A stretch of 64,000 nt of DNA from Parcubacteria group bacterium LiPW_41 (GCA_007375535.1 VMEM01000004.1:22545-86544); one strand, 5' to 3'. Shown: positions 2,583 through 57,309, counted from the first letter of the stretch. Made by a program: numbers and translations. The notes: generated by a model not told the origin, from the sequence alone.

Positions 2583-3809
2583 ATGAAGCGAGTATATCTA
2601 GATTATGCGGCAACAACCCCAGTCAGAAAGGAGGTAATGAAGGCAATGATGCCTTATTTTGGTGTTCATTTTGGAAATCCTGGTTCGCTTCACTCATTTG
2701 GTCAGGATGCAATGTCTGCGATTGATAGTGCTCGCGAGCGAGTTGCTAAGTTATTTGAAGTTGAATTCAGGAATATTATTTTTTGTGGTTCAGCAACTGA
2801 AGCAAACAATCTTGCACTTTGTGGAGTGATAGATTCTTGGAAAGGAAAAGAGAAGCCGCGGGTAATTATTTCGAGCATTGAACACGAGTCGGTATTAGAG
2901 ACCGCACGAGTATTAGAGCGTGAGAAAAAAATTGAACTTGTTTTAGTTGGTGTTGATAAAGAGGGAATTGTTCTCTTAGATGAACTGAAAAAATCATTAA
3001 CCCAAAATACTGCACTTGTTTCGATAATGTATGTGAATAACGAGGTAGGTTCTATTCAACCAATAAAAGAAATTTCTCGTATTATATCTGATTTTAAAGA
3101 TTCATTAAAAATTCGAAATTCGAAATTCGAAATTAATAATTTATATCCTATTTTTCATACTGATGCTGTTCAGGCCTTTTCGTATTTTGATTGTTCTCTT
3201 GATGTCCTTGGTGTTGATCTACTTACTGTTTCTGGACACAAATGTGGAGGTCCTAAAGGTATCGGCATTCTTGTGATCTCAAAAGCAACTTCCGAAAAAG
3301 TCCGAAATTCGAAATTCGAAATTAATAATTTACGATTTTTTTCTCCTGTTATTACCGGTGGTGGTCAGGAATTTAATTTGCGATCAGGAACAGAAAATGT
3401 TCCAACTATAATTGGATGTGTTGAGGCGCTATCAATTGCACAAAAAAATAGAAAAAAAGAATCAGTACGTATTGAACTATTAAGAAGGCGATTCATAAAA
3501 AACTTTTTAAAGGTATTTCCAGAGAGTTTTGTAAATGGAGGGGAAACACATTCGCCACACATCGCAAATATTCAGTTAACAGAAATGAATAGAGAAGAAT
3601 TTCTCACGCATGCGGACCTTCTTGGGGTTGCACTTTCTTCTGGTTCTGCCTGTTCTGCTCGTGCCCATAGCGAATCTCATGTGTTGTCCGCTATGTATGG
3701 AGGGAACGCGACAAAACTAAATGGAATTCGTGCCAGTTTTGGATATAACACAACGTCGAAAGATATTGATAATGCATTTAAATATCTTTCACGAATGGAA
3801 GAAAAATAA
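2583..3809 (+). CDS. cysteine desulfurase (IscS/NifS family, PLP-dependent) with two in-frame repeat insertions
   Basis: YLDYAATTP..., SGHKCGGPKGIG, GGGQE.NLRSGTENVP are class V aminotransferase/cysteine desulfurase motifs; track ORF starts 2550, conserved N-terminus begins at ATG 2583. Confidence 0.85.
   Translation: MKRVYLDYAATTPVRKEVMKAMMPYFGVHFGNPGSLHSFGQDAMSAIDSARERVAKLFEVEFRNIIFCGSATEANNLALCGVIDSWKGKEKPRVIISSIEHESVLETARVLEREKKIELVLVGVDKEGIVLLDELKKSLTQNTALVSIMYVNNEVGSIQPIKEISRIISDFKDSLKIRNSKFEINNLYPIFHTDAVQAFSYFDCSLDVLGVDLLTVSGHKCGGPKGIGILVISKATSEKVRNSKFEINNLRFFSPVITGGGQEFNLRSGTENVPTIIGCVEALSIAQKNRKKESVRIELLRRRFIKNFLKVFPESFVNGGETHSPHIANIQLTEMNREEFLTHADLLGVALSSGSACSARAHSESHVLSAMYGGNATKLNGIRASFGYNTTSKDIDNAFKYLSRMEEK
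3111..3143. repeat. 7-nt-periodic repeat (CGAAATT)x3+AATAATTTA, in-frame insertion 1 in cysteine desulfurase
   Basis: attcgaaattcgaaattcgaaattaataattta encodes ...IRNSKFEINNL... inside a conserved enzyme. Confidence 0.7.
3302..3333. repeat. second copy of the same 30-nt repeat, in-frame insertion 2 in cysteine desulfurase
   Basis: ccgaaattcgaaattcgaaattaataattta encodes ...VRNSKFEINNL...; identical 30-nt core to copy 1. Confidence 0.7.
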
Positions 3810-5917: not shown

Positions 5918-6034
5918 GGGGGTGGTAGTTAGGATGTAGGGATTAGCACTCGTATGTTGAGCTTGCTAATGGATTTATGATACAGTAGTATAGAAGTAAA
6001 TTATTTCTTTTAAGTAGGAAATAAGTTGTATTCC

Positions 6035-6070
6035 ATTCGAAATTAATAATTCGAAATTCAAAATTATTCT
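6035..6070. repeat. related 7-nt-periodic repeat (CGAAATT/AATAATT/CGAAATT/CAAAATT) immediately upstream of clpB start
   Basis: attcgaaattaataattcgaaattcaaaattattc, same heptamer family as the iscS-internal copies. Confidence 0.6.
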
Positions 6071-6072
6071 TT

Positions 6073-8745
6073 ATGCCTCAATTCAATAAATTTACTATTA
6101 AAACACAAGAAGCATTACAAAGCGCTCAGGATATGGCGATGCGAGAAAACCATGGGGAGTTAAAAGGGCTCCATGTGTTACTTATGTTGTTAGATGACGA
6201 ATCAACACTTGTTCGTCCTATTCTTGTTCGTGCAAATGTAAATGTTGGTGGATTGATTTCCCGCGTTGAAGATGCGGTACTTCATTTACCAAAAATATTT
6301 CAAGGAATTGGAAATACTGGACAAATGTATTTGTCTCCAGAGCTTGTTCGAATTTTAGATAGATCAGGAGAGATTGCTCGAGCTGAGCAAGATGATTTTA
6401 TTTCATGTGAACACGTGTTGCTTGCAATTGCAGATTTCCCTTCGGTTGCACAGGAATTACTTTCACAATTTGGTGTAAGAAAAGAAGCACTTCTTAAGGC
6501 GTTTCATGAGGTGCGTGGATCAATGCGAGTAACTGACGAGACCCCTGAAAATAAATTTCAAACATTGGAAAAATATGCGATTAACATCACCGAAAAAGCT
6601 CGCGCAGGAAAATTGGATCCAGTAATTGGGAGAGAAGAGGAGTTGCGTCGTTTGATGCAGATTCTTTCTCGTCGAACAAAAAATAATCCAGTGCTTATTG
6701 GAGAACCTGGTGTGGGAAAGACGGCAATTGTTGAGGGACTCGCGCAGCGTATTGTTTCAAATGATGTTCCTGAACCACTCAAAAATAAAGAGGTGGTAAT
6801 GCTTGATTTGGGTTCACTTATTGCGGGGACAAAGTTTCGTGGAGAGTTTGAGGATCGTCTCAAGGCTTTTTTGAAGGAGGTACAAAGCGCCGAGGGAAAA
6901 ATTTTGTTGTTTATCGACGAGATTCATATGATTGTGGGTGCAGGAGCGGCAGAAGGTGCGATTGATGCGTCAAATTTGTTGAAGCCAGCACTTGCACGCG
7001 GTGAGCTCCACGCAATTGGAGCAACAACACTCAAAGAATATCAAAAACATATCGAAAAAGATGCGGCGCTCGAACGAAGATTTCAGCCAATTGTAGTTGA
7101 TGAGCCATCAATTGATGATTCGATTTCTATTTTAAGGGGATTGAAAGAAAAATATGAAATGCATCATGGACTTAAAATTTCTGATGAAGCAATTGTTTCA
7201 GCGGTAAATCTTTCTGCTCGATATATTACCGATCGTTTCCTTCCTGATAAGGCGGTAGATTTGATTGATGAGGCTTCAGCAGCTCGTCGACTTGAGTCAG
7301 AGAGTATGCCAACAGAGCTTGATAAAATCAGGCGCGAGATTACACGACTTGAGATTGAAAAATCAGCACTCGTGAGCGAGCGGACATCAAAAAAGGCAAC
7401 CGACAGGATGAAAGAGGTAGAGAATGAGCTGCAGGAACTCAAGAAAAAAAATGATGAGATATCTGGTCAGTGGCACAATGAAAAAGTAACATTTGAGAAG
7501 TTTCACACATTGAGAAAAAAAATGGATGACCTTCGTCGCGAAGCAGAAATTGCTGAACGTGAGGGAAATTTTGATCGTGTAGCAAAAATTACTTATGGGG
7601 AGCTTCCAATTGCAGAAAAAGAGTATAAGGCATTTGAAAAAAAATACTTTTTGATTGAGGAAAAAGGTGGAAAGAAAAAAACAAAGAAAGGTTCTGAGCC
7701 ACATCGGTTTATTAAAGAAACAATTGATGAACAAGACATTGCGGGTGTTGTTTCTCGTTGGACGGGAATTCCTGTTTCAAAAATGTTGGAGTCTGAGATG
7801 AATAAGCTTTCTCGACTTGATGAAGAATTAATGAAGAGGGTGGTAGGACAGAAAGAGGCAATTTCTGCTGTTGCTCGCGCACTTCGAAGATCGCGTGCGG
7901 GGCTTTCCGATGAGGATAGGCCAATGGGGTCGTTTATCTTCCTTGGTCCAACTGGCGTTGGAAAAACAGAGCTTGCAAAGACGCTTGCAGAATTTATGTT
8001 CAACGACGAAAAGGCACTCGTGCGTGTTGATATGTCGGAATACACTGAGCGTCATGCAGTTGCTCGTCTCATTGGCTCTCCTCCGGGATATGTGGGACAC
8101 GAAGAGGGGGGACAACTTACGCAAATCGTTCGTCACCGACCATATAGTTTGATTTTGTTTGATGAAATTGAAAAAGCACATCCTGAAGTATTTAATATAT
8201 TACTTCAAGTACTCGACAATGGACGACTCACCGACGGGAAGGGGAAGACGGTGAATTTTAGAAACACTGTCATCATCCTTACTTCAAATGTTGGGAGCGC
8301 CTATTTTAAGGAACTTTCGCGTTTGGGATTTGGAACAAACGAAAAAGAAAAAGCAGTCCGCGAGCAAGAAGAACAGTTCCGAGAAGGAGTTCAAGAAGCG
8401 CTCAAAGAAACGTTTCGTCCTGAGTTTTTAAATCGTTTGGATGAGGTGGTGATATTTAATTCACTCAAGAAAGAAGCAATAGAAGAGATTATCGATATTC
8501 AACTTGCACGCGTCGCAGAACGTCTCAAAATAAAAAATATAAGTATTGTGGTGAAGCCAGCTATTAAGGCATACTTAAGTGAAGAGGGATTTGATCCCGA
8601 TTATGGCGCGCGCCCTATCAAACGGTTAATTGAGAAGGTGATTGTTGACGCGCTTGCAGATAAAATCATTCGTGGCGAAGTTAATGAAGGTCAAAAACTT
8701 ACTATCTCGCTTTCAAAAGATCGTAGAGTGGTCATTAGTCGCTAA
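6073..8745 (+). CDS. clpB: ATP-dependent chaperone ClpB
   Basis: 890 aa; Clp N domain, two AAA+ modules ([18 protein letters not shown]; [16 protein letters not shown]), long middle coiled-coil, sensor motifs. Confidence 0.95.
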
Positions 8746-9869: not shown

Positions 9870-12800
9870 ATGTCAAAGTTAACTTATAAAATCGCGACTG
9901 CTAGTATTGCGGTTATGACAATCGCATCACTTTCAGCACCAGCGTTTGCTCAAGTTTCAACTTCAGACCTTCAAGCTCAGATCGCAGCACTTCAGGCGCA
10001 GCTTACGCAGCTCCAGGGTGGTTCGTCAGCGAGCTCATATACTTTCACCAAAAACCTCACAGTTGGTGCAAAGGGAGAAGATGTGAAGCAGCTTCAGAGT
10101 ATTCTTATTGCTGGTGGCTATCTTAAAATAGCCGCTCCAACTTCATTCTTTGGTCCAGCGACCAAGGCAGCTGTCATCGCGTGGCAGAAAGCAGTTGGAA
10201 TTTCTCCTACCTCAGGATTTGTAGGAGCATTAAGCCGTGCAAAGCTTAATGGTAGTTCAGTTGTAACGCCAGGCGTTCCAGCAACGGACTCATATCTTAA
10301 AGTAGAGGTAGTGCCATCACTTGGTGGTACGATCCCATCAAGCTCTTTATATAACAAAGTCTTGAACCTCAAGCTTACCGCAGGAAAAGACGCAGTTGTT
10401 GTGACGGGTATCACCGCAACTCGTGGTGGATACATCGCAAACACTCGTATTAACGGCGTGAGCGCGTGGGACGAAGCAGGAAAGCGCTATGGAAACATTG
10501 TGACTTCTCTTACTTCAGACGGAAAAGTAACAGTGAACTTCGGTTCAGATCCAATGACTGTTCCAGCAGGAACAACAAAGAATCTTTCTGTTGCTATCAA
10601 CCTCGATTCAACAGCAACATCAGCCTCAGTAAACTTTGGTTTGATGTCAGCATCTGATATCAAGGTATCAGGAACCGCTCCAGTACAGGGAACCTTCCCA
10701 ATGATTGGCGGAACCTATTCAGTTGTCGACGGTTCAGCATCACTTGGTGACGTTCGCGTTTCAAATGACACCGTTAGCGGTATGTCAACTTCAAGCGCTC
10801 AGACATCATCTGTTGATGGAAACGTAGACATTGGTGATACACAACGTGAGGTGTTCAAACTCAAATTGACTCAGAACAACTCAAAAGAAGCAGTATATGT
10901 AAAGAACGTAACCCTTTATGTTGGTGGCAACATTGTTGAATCAACTGATATAAAGAACTGGAAATTGTATTCCCAGGAAGGAACCGTTCTCGCAACTGCA
11001 GAGCGTTCGATTGATCGTAACGTAACCTTCAATCTTGCGACTCCTTACATGATTGACAAGGGTCTTTCTCGAACTCTTCCAGTGAAGGCTGATATTGTTG
11101 ACGGTTCAGGCCGTTACTTCCAGGTATTTGTACAGAACGACTACGATCTCGTAGTAACCGGTGCAACAACTGGATCATCAGTTCTCTTAACTGACTCAAG
11201 TGGAGGAAGTCTTACTCAATCAGACACACAGGACAATACTTCTGGCTACTTCAAGATGAAGCAAGGCGGACTTACTGTCTCAAAGTCACCATCATCACCA
11301 AGCGGATCAATTGCTCCATCAGCAACTAACGTTGTTCTTGGTTCATTTGATGTAAAGTCTTCAGGCGAACAGCTTGAACTCCGCAAGATGGCGATTCGCG
11401 TCGTTCGCAGTGCAGCTGCTCCAGTTCTTACTGGTTCAATTACTGTGAAAGATGCAACCACCGGTGAAACCTATTATTCAGTATCAGCAGATACTACTGG
11501 TTTGCAGAGCACAACAACTCCATCAAGCTGGTCTTCATCTGATCAAATGACACTTTCGAGCTACATTCCGCTTTCAAGCAATCAAACTCGAACACTTCAG
11601 GTATTGGGTAGTGTTTCATCAGCGGCAACCTCTGGTACCTATAAAGTACACATTGGAGACTTCTATGCAAAGCGTTTCTCAACAAATGATTACCAGGATG
11701 TAGCAACGGGTGTCACATCGGCAAACCAGCTTTCCTTGCAAGACGTAACTCTTACAGTTACAAAGAATGCATCATTTGCGAATACCAATCGTGCAGCAGG
11801 TGCAACCAACGTAAAAGTTGCGGAGTTCAACCTCCAAGGATCTTCAGCCGATGATATTCAGGTGAATACGATTTCATTGAACATTACTACAAGCACAAAC
11901 TTCCAGAACGTAAAAGTTATGGATGGAACAACCCAACTCGGTAACACGGTTGGAACTCCAAGTGCAACTGGTAACAGCTTCACAGTAAACCTCGTTGTTG
12001 CAAAATCAGCAACAAAGTTGATCTCTGTGTATGCTGACATCGTTTCAAGTGCAACTGGTAACTCAGTTGTTTCGATTGCGGCATCTGGCGTAAGTGGATA
12101 CGGAAAGGATTCTGGAAAGGCATTAAGCTCAACTCCAGTATCTGCAACCCCAGGTCAGACTATTGCAATTGGTACACCTTCAGTAACCATCGCATCAAGC
12201 GATAACTCAGCTCTTACTTCGAAAGTTTTGATTGCTGGTACAACTGGCGTATCACTTGGTGATATCAAGTTCTCAGCAACAAACGAAGATCTCGTTTTGA
12301 GAAAAATCACTCTTAACCTCACTTCAGCTTCCACTTCATTGTGGTCACAGGATGCGGTTAATGGTAACTTCGTTTCAGTAAAACTTTATGATGGATCAAC
12401 CGAACTCGGTTCTTCATCAGTAGTAAGCGGTGTTGCGTTAATCACAATTCCAGAGGCAAAGTGGGTAACCTTGCCACAAGGAAGCGACAAGATCTTAACC
12501 GTAAAGGCAGATCTTAGCGCAAACACAGCAATCTCAAGCCAATCAGTATTCCGTGCAACTGTAACAAGTTCATCAACCACTAATCTTGAAATTAGCTCAG
12601 CATCACTCGGAATCATGGATACCGGCGTAACAATTTCAAGCGCTGCAACGAACTACTATAAAGTTCAAGCGGTTGCTCCAACAATTGCTGCTGGTTCTGG
12701 TTTCTCAGCAAACACCGTAGGTGCAGCTGACTCAGAAATCGGCCGTGTAACCGTAGGAAAGCAAGGAGATCGCAACGTAATCCTTACCGGACTCACATTG

Positions 12801-16540: not shown

Positions 16541-16600
16541 TCTAGGGATTCGATTTTTTCCTATCCGTCATCCTCGCGAAAGCGGGGATCAAATCTTATT
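16541..16600. terminator. convergent-gene terminator region (two weak hairpins)
   Basis: gaatc-tcttctagg-gattc+T6 and atcctcgcgaaagcggggat between convergent genes. Confidence 0.35.
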
Positions 16601-16659
16601 ATTTTTTTAAATTTGATTATTGGAGAATTAAATTAAAATTTGAAATTTGTAAATTAAAA

Positions 16660-18147
16660 TTATTTTCCCTTCTCCATCATGCATAAAATATCTGCACATT
16701 CTGGAGTTCCGAATCCCTCATTTATCTTCTGTTGTGCTTCTTGCTCTGATTGTTTTCCATGCGCGGGATGGAATGCTAAAAATATTTTTGTGTTTTCTCC
16801 ACACTGTGGAAGGATGGTAATATTTTTTTTCATGTACCACTGAATTATTCCTTCCACTCCAATTCCAGCCGGATTTGTGCCAAGACAAACCTCGTCATCC
16901 TTTATTTGTGGGCCGATTTGTTTTAGAAGTGAAATGTCATTTGGTCCTAAAATTAGGAATTTTTCATAAAAAAAGTTTAGATTTTTATAGGAAAGATAGC
17001 CTCCAAGTATAAGAATTACCACTACGATACCGATTCCAATATCTTTATATAAAGATATTAGTTTCTCAAATAATAATCCGCAGAAAATGGCGACAATGGG
17101 GAAGAATAGGATCATTCCAAACGGATGAGTGCTCCACTGGCGAAATATAAGCATGGTAAAAACGGGAAGAATAAGAATGGGAAGTACAAGCATCATATTC
17201 TTTTCCTGTTTTATTTTTTTATACCAAACCACTACTCCAAGAAGCGCAGAAATAAAGAATAACCATGTTACGTTGAGATTGGTAATCCACCATATTCGTG
17301 AAAACCAGGAATTAATTGGTTGCGAAGAAGTTCTTACAAAGAATGAGTTTTTAAAATCTTCCCAAAACTGAGCCCCATTTAATAAAAAGAACTGAAGCAT
17401 GGTGATTCCAAATGAAATGATGAGTGCAACGGGGATAAGTGAGAGAAAAAGATTTCGGTATTTTGTTGTTTTTCCTTGTTTTGTAAATAAGAATATCCAT
17501 ATTCCTATGGGGAGGAAGTAGAAGAACCAAGCAAATTGTGCCCCAATAAGTGTTGCAATGAAAAACGATATTAGATAGCGTTTCTGTTTTTTTTCATCTT
17601 TTTCAAAAAAGAAAAATATAAATAAGCTATATACAATCATTGCTGCGGGTATCGCAAACATGGTGAGCTCGAAACTTTTTCCGTAGTAGATTGCTCCAGG
17701 GAGTAGTGAAAAAATGAATAGAGAAAGCGCTGCCGTCCTTTCTCCAATAACTTTGCGTAGCGCAAAGAAAAAAGGAATGAGGGCAACAAGCAAAAATAGA
17801 AATAGTCCGAGACGCGTAGTGACCTCGGAGACTCCAAAAATCGAATAAAGGATTGCTGTTGGGATCAAGAAAAGTTGTGGGTGGTGGGTGTATGCGGTTC
17901 CTAAAAAAGTGGTTGTATCTCTAATAAATGGGTTAAAATATCCACCCCGAACCCCTAAAAATCCAACTGTATTTATGTTTTGTGATGCAACTCCATTAGT
18001 TCCAGCTATATCCTCGGTAACGTGAATAAATGGCGAATTTATCTGCCAAAGGGACACAAGAACGTAAAATATAAGAATCAATATTGGGAATAAAAGACCT
18101 CGTTTCTTTTCTTCTGTAGGTTTTTTAATCTTATTTTCTTTTTTCAT
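16660..18147 (-). CDS. GT-C fold glycosyltransferase (family 39/83; PMT/ArnT-like)
   Basis: 495 aa, ~12 TM helices, N-terminal loop with conserved D/E-rich motif typical of dolichyl-phosphate-mannose-protein mannosyltransferase/ArnT family. Confidence 0.7.
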   Translation of the reverse strand: MKKENKIKKPTEEKKRGLLFPILILIFYVLVSLWQINSPFIHVTEDIAGTNGVASQNINTVGFLGVRGGYFNPFIRDTTTFLGTAYTHHPQLFLIPTAILYSIFGVSEVTTRLGLFLFLLVALIPFFFALRKVIGERTAALSLFIFSLLPGAIYYGKSFELTMFAIPAAMIVYSLFIFFFFEKDEKKQKRYLISFFIATLIGAQFAWFFYFLPIGIWIFLFTKQGKTTKYRNLFLSLIPVALIISFGITMLQFFLLNGAQFWEDFKNSFFVRTSSQPINSWFSRIWWITNLNVTWLFFISALLGVVVWYKKIKQEKNMMLVLPILILPVFTMLIFRQWSTHPFGMILFFPIVAIFCGLLFEKLISLYKDIGIGIVVVILILGGYLSYKNLNFFYEKFLILGPNDISLLKQIGPQIKDDEVCLGTNPAGIGVEGIIQWYMKKNITILPQCGENTKIFLAFHPAHGKQSEQEAQQKINEGFGTPECADILCMMEKGK

Positions 18148-26337: not shown

Positions 26338-27882
26338 TTATTCAACCATTGTTTTTGGATTAATTTTTTGGAGCAATGGTTCTTTTTGTAAAACGAGAAG
26401 TCCAAGATATATGACTCCTCCAAATCCTATAGTGAATACTACGTGCGGGGAAATAAGAGAAATAAGTAGGCACGCAATTCCCATTCCAACCGATGCGAGA
26501 ATTATTTTCTTTATGTGAGGAAATAATGAAAAAGGAATAATTTTTTTCATACTGATCCAAAGCCACCCATTTGAAAAAAGTTGTGCAATAAGTGTTGCAA
26601 AGGCGGATCCCGTGACGCCATAGGGGGGAATAAGTAAGAGATCGAGGATTAGATTTGCAACCGCGCCAAGTCCATATGCAACAATAAATGTTTTTTGTTT
26701 GTGATGTGCAAATAAAATATTTCCTAAAATTGTTCCCGTAAACACAAGTGGTACGGTAAGGAGTAATACCTGAAATGGCATAGAGGCATCAATAAATTTA
26801 TTTCCAAAAATAAAAACTGTAAGAGGTATACCAACAACAATGCCACCCACAAGAACGGGGAACGCAAACATCATAGACAGAGAGAGTGCCTTTTCTACTG
26901 TTCGTTTCACCTTTTCAACTTTTCCTTCCGCGACATACCTGCTCACTATTGGAAAAATGCTTGCTGCAAAAAGTGCTGGAAGAACATAGAGGAACATTAC
27001 TGGGCGCTGAGCAGCACCATAGAGTCCTAAGTCGTGAGCGGTGCGAAACCAACCAATAACTAATGTATCTACATTAATCATTAAATTACCAAAGAGCCCC
27101 ATTAGTGCAAATGGCCACGAACTAAAAAACACTAATCGTGCATACTGCAGGCTGAAATTACTTAAAAGTCCAGAAAAATCTTTTCGCAGTATATAGAACG
27201 TGATGAGTGTTCCAATTATTATTCCGGTTGTGTAGCCATAAGCTAAAAATTTTGCTGAGGGAAAAACAAGCAATGCAGCGATTCCAAGAATAGTAATAAG
27301 TCCATCGGTAATAATGTTTGCTCCCGACTCAATTTGCATCTTGTTTTTTGCTCGAGCAATAGAAAAGGCAAATCCACGAAGAGAATCAAACGCGAGAAGC
27401 ACGCTTACCGTAAGAAGAAGTTCTTGAATTCCTTTTACATTTGTGAGATATGGTCCCACAAACATAGTGATGCCTATGGTGACGGTAAGTGCAATAAGCT
27501 TAAGAATAAATGTAGTGGATGCGTAAATCTTGGTTTTCTCTGGTTCTTGCACCGCCTGACGAGTAAGTATTCCAGAGAGACCCATATCAGAAAATACTCC
27601 AAAAAGACCCGCAAAACTTAATGCGTATGAAAAAACACCGTATCCTTCGGTGCCCAATATGCGTGCTGCATACATTATCATAATTGCCCGAATGGAACGA
27701 CTTACAATTGTTCCAAGGGTGAGCCAAAATGTATTTTTTGCTATTGTCTGCGATTCTGTTTTGTTCTCAAAAAGGAATGACTTAATCTTCGGTATCATAG
27801 ATATATCCCCATTGTACCCGTCTTTCCCCAAAAACTGAATATCTCCACTATTTTCCAAAAGAATATAAATTGATAAATACAT
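26338..27882 (-). CDS. Wzx-type polysaccharide flippase (MOP superfamily)
   Basis: 14 TM helices; N-terminal NTFWLTLGTIVSRSIRAIMIMYAARILG motif of polysaccharide biosynthesis proteins. Confidence 0.75.
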   Translation of the reverse strand: MYLSIYILLENSGDIQFLGKDGYNGDISMIPKIKSFLFENKTESQTIAKNTFWLTLGTIVSRSIRAIMIMYAARILGTEGYGVFSYALSFAGLFGVFSDMGLSGILTRQAVQEPEKTKIYASTTFILKLIALTVTIGITMFVGPYLTNVKGIQELLLTVSVLLAFDSLRGFAFSIARAKNKMQIESGANIITDGLITILGIAALLVFPSAKFLAYGYTTGIIIGTLITFYILRKDFSGLLSNFSLQYARLVFFSSWPFALMGLFGNLMINVDTLVIGWFRTAHDLGLYGAAQRPVMFLYVLPALFAASIFPIVSRYVAEGKVEKVKRTVEKALSLSMMFAFPVLVGGIVVGIPLTVFIFGNKFIDASMPFQVLLLTVPLVFTGTILGNILFAHHKQKTFIVAYGLGAVANLILDLLLIPPYGVTGSAFATLIAQLFSNGWLWISMKKIIPFSLFPHIKKIILASVGMGIACLLISLISPHVVFTIGFGGVIYLGLLVLQKEPLLQKINPKTMVE

Positions 27883-27884
27883 TT

Positions 27885-27920
27885 GTTAATACTTACCGGC
27901 GACCGCCGGTAAGTATTAAC
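27885..27920. repeat. 36-bp perfect palindrome A1 (GTTAATACTTACCGGCG-AC-CGCCGGTAAGTATTAAC) in divergent promoter region
   Basis: 17-bp perfect arms; second copy at 28566-28601 differs by a symmetric (compensated) T/A change. Confidence 0.7.
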
Positions 27921-27956
27921 ATCACAAGTGATATAATAAATAAGCAAAGAAAAAGA

Positions 27957-28541: not shown

Positions 28542-28565
28542 TACAATATAAAAGTAATATTATTT

Positions 28566-28601
28566 GTTAATACATACCGGCGACCGCCGGTATGTATTAA
28601 C
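28566..28601. repeat. 36-bp perfect palindrome A2 (GTTAATACATACCGGCG-AC-CGCCGGTATGTATTAAC)
   Basis: direct repeat of A1 including the shared flank atttgttaatac...; lies between convergent genes. Confidence 0.7.
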
Positions 28602-28682
28602 ATGTGCGGGCACACTTCAATATAGAACTAGAAAATAAAGAGAGCTCACCGATTCGGCGAGTTCTCTTTATTTGTGTGTGAT

Positions 28683-55715: not shown

Positions 55716-55863
55716 AAATCCTCCTATTGTTAATGATGGTACAACAATATCACCAATATCTTGTTTGGGGCAAGTTTAGGTTTGAGTCCTTTTTGTTTAA
55801 AAATTAGAAATTGATAATTAAAAATTCAAACTCCGATATTTCTATCGGAGTTTGGTATTTGTG

Positions 55864-55964: not shown

Positions 55965-55998
55965 AAGCGAGGAATAAATCCTCACTTTTTGTTTTTTG
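55965..55998. terminator. bidirectional terminator hairpin next to tRNA-Lys
   Basis: aaaagcgaggaataaatcctcactttttgtttttt. Confidence 0.5.
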
Positions 55999-56071
55999 TG
56001 CCCCCACTAGGATTCGAACCTAGGACCGTTTGCTTAAGAGGCAACTGCTCTACCAGCTGAGCTATAGGGGC
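55999..56071 (-). tRNA. tRNA-Lys (anticodon CUU)
   Basis: reverse complement GCCCCTA-TA-GCTC-AGCTGGTA-GAGC-A-GTTGC-CTCTTAA-GCAAA-CGGTC-CTAGG-TTCGAAT-CCTAG-TGGGGGC-A folds as a cloverleaf; CCA not encoded. Confidence 0.75.
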
Positions 56072-56201
56072 TTATCACTATTTCAGGTTTTCTTAAGTAC
56101 GGAGTTTACTATACAAAAAATTATATTTTTTATCAATGTTGCATCTTGTACTGTTGTTGGTACATACTAAGAAAGTTCATTTAAAACAAAGAGAGGTTTC
56201 C

Positions 56202-56579
56202 GTGATTAATTTTGAAGAGATACGCGATCGTATTTTCAGGCGTTCGAAGGGAGATACGCAAGATTCAATTGAGAGGGGGGAGTTGCGCGAAAGAGTTGTT
56301 TCCTGTGTGCTTCAGAAAATGAAGGATAATAAACAAATATTGGATTTTGTAAAAACTCCTAAGTATGGTCCTGCAGATCTTATCGATGGCATAGACTTTT
56401 ATGTCATTATCATGAAGCTTGAACGAGTTGTTATACCAATTCAGGTTACTGGTTATCGTTTTGTAGAAGAACATAAGAGAAAACACCCACTTATTGATGT
56501 GGTTGCAGTGCCAGACGAAGAAGAAAAAAGAGAAGAGGTTACGCGTAGCCAAATTGAACAAATTATTCAAAAATTCTGA
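56202..56579 (+). CDS. hypothetical protein
   Basis: GTG 56202 preceded by gagagg at -11..-6; 126 aa, no recognisable motif; track start 56136 has no RBS. Confidence 0.35.
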   Translation: MINFEEIRDRIFRRSKGDTQDSIERGELRERVVSCVLQKMKDNKQILDFVKTPKYGPADLIDGIDFYVIIMKLERVVIPIQVTGYRFVEEHKRKHPLIDVVAVPDEEEKREEVTRSQIEQIIQKF

Positions 56580-56683
56580 GCGCTTTGATGATCTTTACAT
56601 CAGGCGCTTTTTTGTTACAATTGCTAATGTTCCTTACAGAGAACAATATTCCTCGGTAGCTCAACGGTAGAGCGGCGCGCTGT

Positions 56684-57228
56684 GAACATGTGAGTCCATT
56701 CCATGGTATAATACACTGTGTTATGCCAGAAAAAAGGACTTATGCCGACAGGGCTGAATATATAAAACAGGCAGTCACTAAGAGAAGAAGAAAACTCAAA
56801 GAGATGCTTGTTGAATATAAAGGTGGAAAATGTGTTGTTTGCAAATATAAGAAGACTTCTTGGGCGTTAGATTTACACCATATTGATCCGATAAAAAAGG
56901 ATTTTAATATGTCTGTGCGTGGTCTCACGCGATCTTGGGAAAGATTAAAACAAGAGGCGGATAAGTGTGTTCTTCTTTGTGCAAATTGTCATAGGGAGAT
57001 TCATGCCGGCATTACGCAGCTTCCGAAAGCAATTTCGGTTGAAAAACGAAGTGAATTCGGGGAAACCCAAAAAGGGCAATCCCGAGCCAAGCCTCTAAAA
57101 AAGAGGAAGGTGTAGAGACTATCTCGAAAGAGAGTACTGTTTCATATTTATTTATGAAATGGGAAGCGCTTCGCATCCCTCAGGGATGATGATATAGTCC
57201 ATCCTTTATGGAAACATAGAGATAAATG
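56684..57228 (+). mobile_element. intron-like insertion in tRNA anticodon loop (most consistent with a group I intron) carrying an HNH homing-endonuclease ORF
   Basis: 545 nt between tRNA halves; 5' exon ends with U, insertion ends with G; internal ORF with HNH motif; structured 3' tail (ggaagcgcttcgcatccc / cagggatgatgatatagtccatcc). Confidence 0.5.
56723..57115 (+). CDS. HNH endonuclease (intron-encoded homing endonuclease candidate)
   Basis: CVVCKY....LDLHHIDP.........CANCHREIH is the canonical HNH zinc-finger/catalytic His-Asn-His core; basic C-terminal tail. Confidence 0.75.
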   Translation: MPEKRTYADRAEYIKQAVTKRRRKLKEMLVEYKGGKCVVCKYKKTSWALDLHHIDPIKKDFNMSVRGLTRSWERLKQEADKCVLLCANCHREIHAGITQLPKAISVEKRSEFGETQKGQSRAKPLKKRKV

Positions 57229-57276
57229 TAACGCGATGGTTGTAGGTTCGAATCCTACCCGAGGAGCAAAAAATAA

Positions 57277-57309
57277 AAACGGCGGATTTATTCCGTTGTT
57301 TTTATTTTC
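57277..57309 (+). terminator. intrinsic terminator after the split tRNA
   Basis: aaaacggcggatttattccgttgtttttatttt. Confidence 0.5.

Follow-up and report, generated by a model that had tools for sequence, protein, structure and literature searches.

Rickettsia palindromic elements (RPEs) are palindromic insertions of about 150 bp that occur as families with tens of scattered copies per genome, each with a conserved peptide open reading frame (ORF), and that enter genes in frame, adding a peptide to housekeeping proteins where fold and function allow it. Heptameric simple sequence repeats are over-represented in prokaryotes, where their short arrays occur in distant phyla, often beside start codons, with no established mechanism. 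Known representatives are the short tandemly repeated repetitive (STRR) sequences of Calothrix, GGGAATC/GGGGATT of Xanthomonas and Nostoc, and TAACTGA of Beggiatoaceae, Cyanobacteria and Bacteroidetes; such repeats have been put down tentatively to slippage of the polymerase. Furthermore, Nostoc small dispersed repeats (SDRs) are reportedly hairpin elements of 21-27 nt nested in heptamer repeats. Segments of a genome may also evolve in concert through intragenomic gene conversion, as duplicated tuf genes and rRNA operons do. Here we analyse a cysteine desulfurase gene in a 64,000-nt stretch of DNA (hereafter the window) from Parcubacteria group bacterium LiPW_41 (GCA_007375535.1, VMEM01000004.1:22545-86544), which carries in-frame CGAAATT arrays in two separate loops. 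We consider it probable, with some reserve, that a heptanucleotide array in one hypervariable loop was copied to the neighbouring loop and was tolerated there since it is stop-free and solvent-exposed.

Two exact occurrences of the 30-mer CGAAATTCGAAATTCGAAATTAATAATTTA were found in the window, both on the plus strand, at 3114-3143 and 3303-3332, with no such pair expected from 100 dinucleotide-preserving shuffles. A previous sequence-only reading had located the first copy correctly and had set the second one nucleotide too far downstream (3304-3333). The repeat extends to 37 nt, of which 35 are identical (95%; Table 1), and the copies start 189 nt, or 63 codons, apart, both in frame and both encoding the peptide K[IV]RNSKFEINNL. 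Perfect period-7 runs span 3109-3134 in copy 1 and 3303-3323 in copy 2; Tandem Repeats Finder reported period 7, 3.7 and 3.0 copies, respectively, and 100% match. For periods of 5-12, these runs are the sole exact arrays with at least three units in the 64 kb, and the shuffles yielded none. They consist of head-to-tail 7-nt units in at least three copies, well above chance, and arrays of this kind occur in many unrelated genomes, at genic and intergenic positions alike, as in STRR-type repeats; the window arrays belong to this widespread prokaryotic class of 7-nt tandem repeats. The low sequence complexity alone might suggest that a k-mer was duplicated during assembly or sequencing, an explanation to which we give practically no credence. 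The window sequence is 100% identical in ENA ERZ27284382 over 13.8 kb and in Logan SRR8863432 over 8.5 kb, both copies included, so that, with three identical assemblies, the twin copies are not an assembly artefact; moreover, they are in frame, and homologous paired arrays occur in several related species from independent samples.

The host gene starts with an ATG at a position that agrees with the N-termini of its orthologues, and its nearest protein relatives are cysteine desulfurases in metagenome-assembled genomes (MAGs) of Paceibacteria/Parcubacteria, within the Candidate Phyla Radiation (CPR). Residues H101, D194, Q197, the lysine K220 that binds pyridoxal 5'-phosphate (PLP), C357 and R383 are invariant across the alignments, E. 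coli IscS included. An AlphaFold2 (AF2) model has a mean predicted local distance difference test (pLDDT) score of 87.8 and template modelling (TM) scores of at least 0.8 to NFS1/IscS/NifS structures. With its PLP-Lys, catalytic Cys loop and fold-type-I scaffold, the predicted protein is classified as a type I cysteine desulfurase (IscS/NifS). The sequence-only reading was therefore right in recognising an in-frame pair of heptamer repeats within a conserved PLP enzyme; the catalytic residues of this enzyme are intact.

Both copies are insertions. In a HMMER comparison with a solved cysteine desulfurase structure (9wep), the window protein has 14 unmatched residues at site 1 and 13 at site 2. 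When E. coli IscS is aligned with it by MAFFT, both gaps fall at the same two positions, and relative to an array-free orthologue of about 80% identity (L129, protein P0003) the inserts add 8 and 12 residues. The claim that these residues are absent from canonical IscS/NifS proteins thus holds, and homologue alignment identifies both segments as lineage-specific: orthologues carry different sequence at these positions, or none, and not the conserved, non-repetitive sequence at both sites that an ancestral insert would imply. Placed on IscS, site 1 falls between a helix ending in ...ISDFKxS (...ISDFKDSL in the window) and the strand YP[LI]FHTDA (YPIFHTDA), at the junction of E. coli G174 and I175. 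Site 2 lies between the strand GIGxLxV (GIGILVIS) and SPVITGGGQE and aligns inside the E. coli R219-I226 segment, a solvent-exposed arginine patch in which the R220E/R223E/R225E substitutions abolish CyaY binding while the stability of IscS is kept. In the AF2 model, pLDDT is 74-85 at insert 1, 41-50 at insert 2 and high in the core. In the canonical strand order of fold type I (a-g-f-e-d-b-c, g being antiparallel), strand e begins and strand g ends on the same sheet edge, two strands apart, and the inserts should therefore emerge side by side, making the two loops likely spatial neighbours.

Comparison with orthologues indicates that the pair is not peculiar to the window: within a genome the two loops are alike, between genomes they differ, and this pattern recurs in at least eight related lineages. 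Three loci (L003, L004 and L158, all encoding P0002) contain a direct repeat of 76 nt, with identical copies 225 nt apart, of the structure GATTTCAAAAATTCATTAAAAATTCGAAA-CCTGCCTGCCGGTAGGCAAGG-TTCGAAATTCGAAATTAATAATTCCT. In L005, CTCTACCCCCTAACCCCCACCC is found at both sites, as a CCCCTAA-type repeat of which 22 nt are exact and about 39 nt match with four mismatches, and L007 and L128 have (CCCCTAA/ACCCTAA)n arrays at both sites. Three more distant proteins (L219, L220 and L221, about 45-50% identical) carry elements of 88, about 85 and about 76 nt, respectively, built of other 7-8-nt units and again present at both sites; the L219 pair is about 90% identical over its 88 nt. Local DNA alignment of loop against loop gave scores of 70, 54 and 39 for these three loci, against shuffled maxima of 17, 18 and 22. 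Within a genome, one loop segment thus resembles the other more closely than it resembles its own orthologues, as expected of concerted evolution. Among 87 homologues with recognisable anchors, six (6.9%) share a string of at least 6 aa between loops 1 and 2, compared with 0.15% between different proteins. Loop lengths range over 1-54 and 4-39 aa, and the insert peptides, from Pro-rich to Lys/Asn-rich, are unrelated across lineages, with many orthologues having no insert.

The loops are periodic as well. A 7-residue period is the signature of an in-frame heptanucleotide array, and 26 runs with this period were counted in the two loops of 120 homologues, while offsets of 5, 6, 8 and 9 gave 0-4. 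Furthermore, in 156 kb of unbiased syntenic CPR DNA, five of the six exact period-7/8 arrays fall in these two loops, which are recurrent array hot-spots across the whole desulfurase family. It should be added that a third variable loop exists in the family: 7-aa periodic inserts, such as RGLTRTDRGLTRT, occur at residues ~83-110 in P0018, P0023, P0033, P0097 and P0103, and the equivalent region of the window protein (~residues 84-91, nt ~2832-2855) has no array.

Relatives also reveal the direction of copying. The 76-nt repeat of L003 holds the DFKNSL codons, which belong natively to site 1, where every orthologue keeps them; site 2 of L003 therefore received a copy of site 1. Likewise, the AATAATTTA tail common to both window copies has its counterpart at site 1 of L129, which has no array (AATAATAATTTTTAT; TCATTAAATAATAATTTTTATCC), and site 2 of L129 shows no match to it. 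The copied tract thus brings along the flank of the donor site in both cases, as gene conversion does, and a shared sequence that includes the native flank of site 1 argues for loop-to-loop copying rather than two transpositions. The motif copied in L005 looks like native site-2 sequence (the x-Y/H-x-L-x-P strand motif), and transfer there may have run the opposite way, from site 2 to site 1. The number of units is 3.7 and 3 in the window; in L003 this array is interrupted by 21 additional nucleotides, a palindrome that is present in both L003 copies and in neither window copy; without it, the L003 array equals the window site-1 sequence exactly. A single insertion of the palindrome followed by copying is more economical than two identical events. 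Tandem segmental duplication as the source of the pair was ruled out, as the 152 nt between the copies are unique and not duplicated.

On these grounds we propose that a (CGAAATT)3-3.7 array with degenerate end units would have arisen in loop 1, or entered loop 1 by recombination, and would then have been copied to loop 2, which lies 63 codons further downstream, either by non-allelic gene conversion within the gene or by microhomology-primed templated repair. Such copying between loops would make the two loops evolve in concert. The array would have been retained, presumably as a neutral insert, because three units (21 nt) keep the frame, the unit brings no stops, and the loops accept residues while the catalytic residues stay intact. 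All six frames of CGAAATT are free of stop codons, a property that only 14.8% of AT-rich heptamers have and that CCCCTAA lacks; this difference would explain why CGAAATT survives in ORFs, while the homogenised array of L128 contains an in-frame TAA. As in the concerted evolution of tuf genes and rRNA operons, segments within a genome are more alike than orthologues and derived states occur in both copies; unlike there, the segments measure only 30-90 nt, lie in one gene about 190 nt apart and share few bases of flanking homology.

The distribution of array types appears to involve exchange between lineages as well. Compared per 100 nt with the closest relative, L128, the central part of the gene is divergent (Table 1), while all other intervals between 2504 and 5700 are 91-100% identical and 2404-2503, upstream of the gene, is 76% identical; over the 5' third of the gene L128 is 99% identical to the window. 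Around site 1, identity to the window is higher for L003 (0.84-0.87) than for L128 (0.67-0.80). The central segment was probably exchanged between lineages by homologous recombination, and this exchange would account for the patchy spread of array types. The L128 orthologue (L128:238-1479; GCA_021840225.1, JAKBZE010000068.1) is itself split into ORFs of 255 and 143 aa, because the (CCCCTAA)n array at its site 2 contains a TAA in frame (...CCT AAC CCC TAA TCC CTA...); a pseudogene, a null allele and a consensus error are all conceivable.

Several points weigh against copying between loops as we have set it out. The phylogeny is patchy, and the CCCCTAA-type arrays of L128 require an additional import of the central 400 nt by recombination. 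Homology flanking the two sites (the S-L ... P-I/V codons) amounts to only a few nt, too short for classical RecA-dependent conversion, and a template-switch mechanism is therefore assumed. Beyond the 30-mer, the window copies are weakly alike on their 5' side (~10/15 nt). The clearest evidence of direction comes from a relative that is 75% identical and not from the window, and, the loops being array hot-spots, the chance that an array originated separately in each of them is not negligible. The adjacency of the loops is deduced from the canonical fold-type-I strand order. Finally, (CGAAATT)3 was found at no fewer than 120 loci in species-representative genomes of many phyla and of 32-71% GC; among the matches listed, about half of the (CGAAATT)n arrays lie within ORFs, at a depth of 60 codons or more, and lengths of 21-38 nt show a mode of 32 and a non-geometric clustering at 25-34. 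Ten arrays were confirmed within Pfam domains, namely those of TsaD, Fmt, transketolase, MetRS, Der, LeuRS, ThiC, PFOR, CarB and a class-I aaRS.

This wide occurrence of arrays of narrow size, in frame in many housekeeping genes of at least 120 species-level genomes, would also suit an explanation in which a small mobile heptamer-array element, similar to an RPE or a miniature inverted-repeat transposable element (MITE), inserted twice independently, only insertions in permissive loops survived and the dominant type filled both. That very small insertions move is indicated by the 20-21-nt GC palindrome of the L003 array, which recurs in unrelated contigs. We nevertheless regard two independent insertions as unlikely. 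Outside the two copies, no (CGAAATT)2 was found in the 64-kb window, so that the further copies inside ORFs that the sequence-only reading had proposed to look for do not appear there, and in a metagenome scan the composite of array plus tail matched Ga0074198_1000007, the 746,631-nt contig with the L003-type gene, only twice, both times in the desulfurase gene; other matches of that scan were mostly unrelated intergenic hairpins or chance matches, plus L152. The sequence shared by the copies contains native site-1 codons, whereas (CGAAATT)n arrays at other loci have unrelated flanks. In viral contigs, control heptamer triplets of the same composition gave 41 and 9 matches against 5 for CGAAATT, and the notion of CGAAATT as one special, horizontally spreading element is weakened by control heptamers being equally or more frequent there. 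Neither terminal inverted repeats nor target-site duplications were seen at the copy junctions on inspection by eye, and a hairpin in the window copies was ruled out by DNA folding (z = 0.58 and -0.10 against shuffles), while the L003 composite with its nested GC palindrome does fold (z = -3.1). Moreover, the presence of the same element in both loops of at least eight lineages is very improbable for independent low-copy insertions.

The likeness to RPEs that had been drawn from the sequence alone therefore stands in part. As RPEs do, the window copies add a peptide in frame to a conserved housekeeping protein at permissive positions; unlike RPEs, which are about 150 bp long, form hairpins and are dispersed, the window element measures 30-37 nt, has no hairpin and is not dispersed. 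It is RPE-like in outcome and fails the tests for RPEs and MITEs on dispersal, palindromy, length and termini. The window arrays agree better with known heptamer repeats in being short (2-6 units in the known cases), above chance and found across phyla, and an array in the clpB leader of the window recalls those known just upstream of start codons. However, the described heptamer repeats are mainly intergenic, and TAACTGA within ORFs is found mostly at protein ends, whereas the window arrays are internal, in frame and inside a Pfam domain, and form a matched, co-evolving pair in an essential-type enzyme. A literature search for the DNA or peptide strings of the element found no paper, and nothing relevant on in-frame repeats in CPR bacteria.

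Some observations on small repeats accompany these comparisons. In L003, at 10592-10612 and 10817-10837, the GC-rich palindrome CCTGCCTGCCGG[C/T]AGGCA(A)GG of 20-21 nt is nested in frame and encodes LPAGRQG, and it also turns up between genes on unrelated AT-rich contigs (L152, L173 and L185). It looks like a very small dispersed insertion and recalls the Nostoc SDRs: as those reportedly are, the 21-nt L003 palindrome (CCTGCCTGCCGGTAGGCAAGG) is cleanly nested in a heptamer array; unlike them, it sits in a host of a different phylum, and it is not part of the window copies. In GC-rich genomes (L021, L009, L088, L098, L109, L121 and others) (CGAAATT)n arrays often stand opposite an inverted array, with a short GC spacer between the two, so that long hairpins result, and often adjoin other heptamer arrays (TTGCAGA, CATCTTG, CAGTCCT, TTCGTCA and CACCCTT). 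In the window, degenerate intergenic (NNAAATT)4-5 arrays were seen in the clpB leader (6031-6067), in the spacer of convergent genes (16630-16662) and by tRNA genes (55797-55833). The pattern AAATTNN repeated four times, with up to three mismatches, has 17 matches in the window against 0.53 expected. The clpB-leader array was rejected as a third copy, since the leader is orthologously conserved (TT[CT]GAAATT twice in L003, L005 and L007) and is not an insertion. A scan of the other window ORFs, insensitive to 3-unit arrays, showed no enrichment of 7-aa periodicity.

Selection on the protein surface has also to be considered. Neighbouring loops might form a surface at the IscS partner-docking patch, and matched inserts might be kept because they pack together or remodel the interface. 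Site 2 does fall on the CyaY-docking patch of E. coli IscS (R219-R225), the pairing recurs in many lineages, and the loops should be side by side by fold topology. We hold such an adaptive paired-loop module to be improbable all the same, for the identity is at the nucleotide level, with exact runs of 30-76 nt that include synonymous positions, which selection on peptides would not yield. Furthermore, insert sequences are unrelated between lineages and missing from many orthologues, and AF2 gives low confidence and no ordered module at site 2. A broader proposal is that two, possibly three, loops of CPR desulfurases are a dedicated, concertedly evolving pair of hypervariable cassettes that diversifies the partner-docking face (the equivalent of IscS R219-R225) under selection, through fragile arrays of short units that are made repeatedly, exchanged by templated repair and swapped between strains. 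We put this forward as speculative and rather unlikely; if true, it would be a previously undescribed route to matched loop variation in a housekeeping protein.

One more alternative is phase variation, in which gain or loss of a 7-nt unit would shift the frame and switch the desulfurase on and off. As in the contingency loci of host-adapted bacteria, the unit is not a multiple of three and lies inside an ORF, and the L128 gene is in fact split by the TAA in its site-2 array. Such phase variation is nonetheless very unlikely here, because the 3-3.7 units are far below typical hypermutable tracts, the sequence is stable in three identical assemblies, the gene is a housekeeping one, and the L128 stop is a substitution-type result of the CCCCTAA unit and not a frameshift.

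Heptanucleotide arrays, usually seen as intergenic curiosities, are a source of recurrent in-frame length variation within conserved enzymes of uncultured bacteria, and, with copying between loops as the favoured explanation, two loops of one protein would be able to swap inserts and co-evolve. The desulfurase would thereby offer a concrete, testable case for the birth of surface loops by slippage, templated copying and a stop-free filter. It is also a warning for annotation, in that matched low-complexity peptides in CPR proteins (RNSKFEI, NFEFRIS, PLTPNP) are translated repeat DNA, and it flags the IscS partner-docking patch as possibly unconstrained in these reduced genomes.

Table 1. Coordinates of the desulfurase gene, its arrays and related segments in the window
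Feature	Coordinates	Strand	Remarks
Predicted cysteine desulfurase ORF, NifS/IscS-like class-V aminotransferase	2583..3809	+	408 aa; Pfam Aminotran_5 E = 2e-66
Divergent patch of the gene	3001..3400	+	73-84% identity to L128, per 100 nt
Copy 1, loop/site 1, residues ~176-187, KIRNSKFEINNL	3107..3143	+	AAAAATT + (CGAAATT)3 + AATAATT + TA
Segment separating the copies, 152 nt	3144..3295	+	Unique conserved core; D194 3162-3164, Q197 3171-3173, K220 3240-3242
Copy 2, loop/site 2, residues ~239-250, KVRNSKFEINNL	3296..3332	+	AAAAGTC + (CGAAATT)3 + AATAATT + TA
Degenerate array in clpB 5' leader	6031..6067	+	ATTCGAA ATTAATA ATTCGAA ATTCAAA; 16-nt exact word common with the element

Around the desulfurase, the order NUDIX, desulfurase, SIMPL, HtrA, ClpB is syntenic and was found at several orthologue loci. 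Upstream of clpB (ORF 6073-8745), an inverted repeat resembling the controlling inverted repeat of chaperone expression (CIRCE), TTAGCACTC-N9-GAGCTTGCTAA, is located at 5943-5969; L003 and L007 have it as well, and HrcA may thus control clpB. A composite intergenic repeat is shared, at non-syntenic positions, by the window (16567-16680) and L003 (13600-13710); it consists of the GC hairpin GTCATCC[CT]CGCG-NNN(N)-GCGGGGAT and the AT-rich block TTGGAGAATTAAATTAAAATTT...TTTCCCTTCT. The L003 copy stands beside a small ORF, GIY-YIG-like by eye, in an expanded spacer upstream of clpB.

Elsewhere in the window, a group I intron (Rfam, 84.8 bits) lies at 56950-57221 on the plus strand, with flanks at ~56136-57290; an ORF with an HNH-like motif (CANCHREIH) comes before it and a putative tRNA 3' half (GGTTCGAATCCTACCCGAGGAGCA) after it. 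This arrangement suggests that a tRNA gene is split by an intron with an endonuclease ORF of its own; the only tRNA predicted by ARAGORN is tRNA-Lys(CTT), at 55998-56071 on the minus strand. The near-perfect palindrome ATTTGTTAATACTTACCGGCGACCGCCGGTAAGTATTAACAT occurs twice, at 27881-27922 and 28562-28603, as does the 31-nt palindrome CAATCTGTTGAGGTCGGACCTCAACAGATTG, whose copies at 30620-30650 and 35998-36028 are identical and 97% self-complementary; both pairs may be terminators or small repeats. Finally, a Cys-rich segment (...C..C...PFKPTG.RPVYC.DC...) is duplicated in tandem at 61166-61246 and 61367-61447, the copies being 201 nt apart and about 70% identical.

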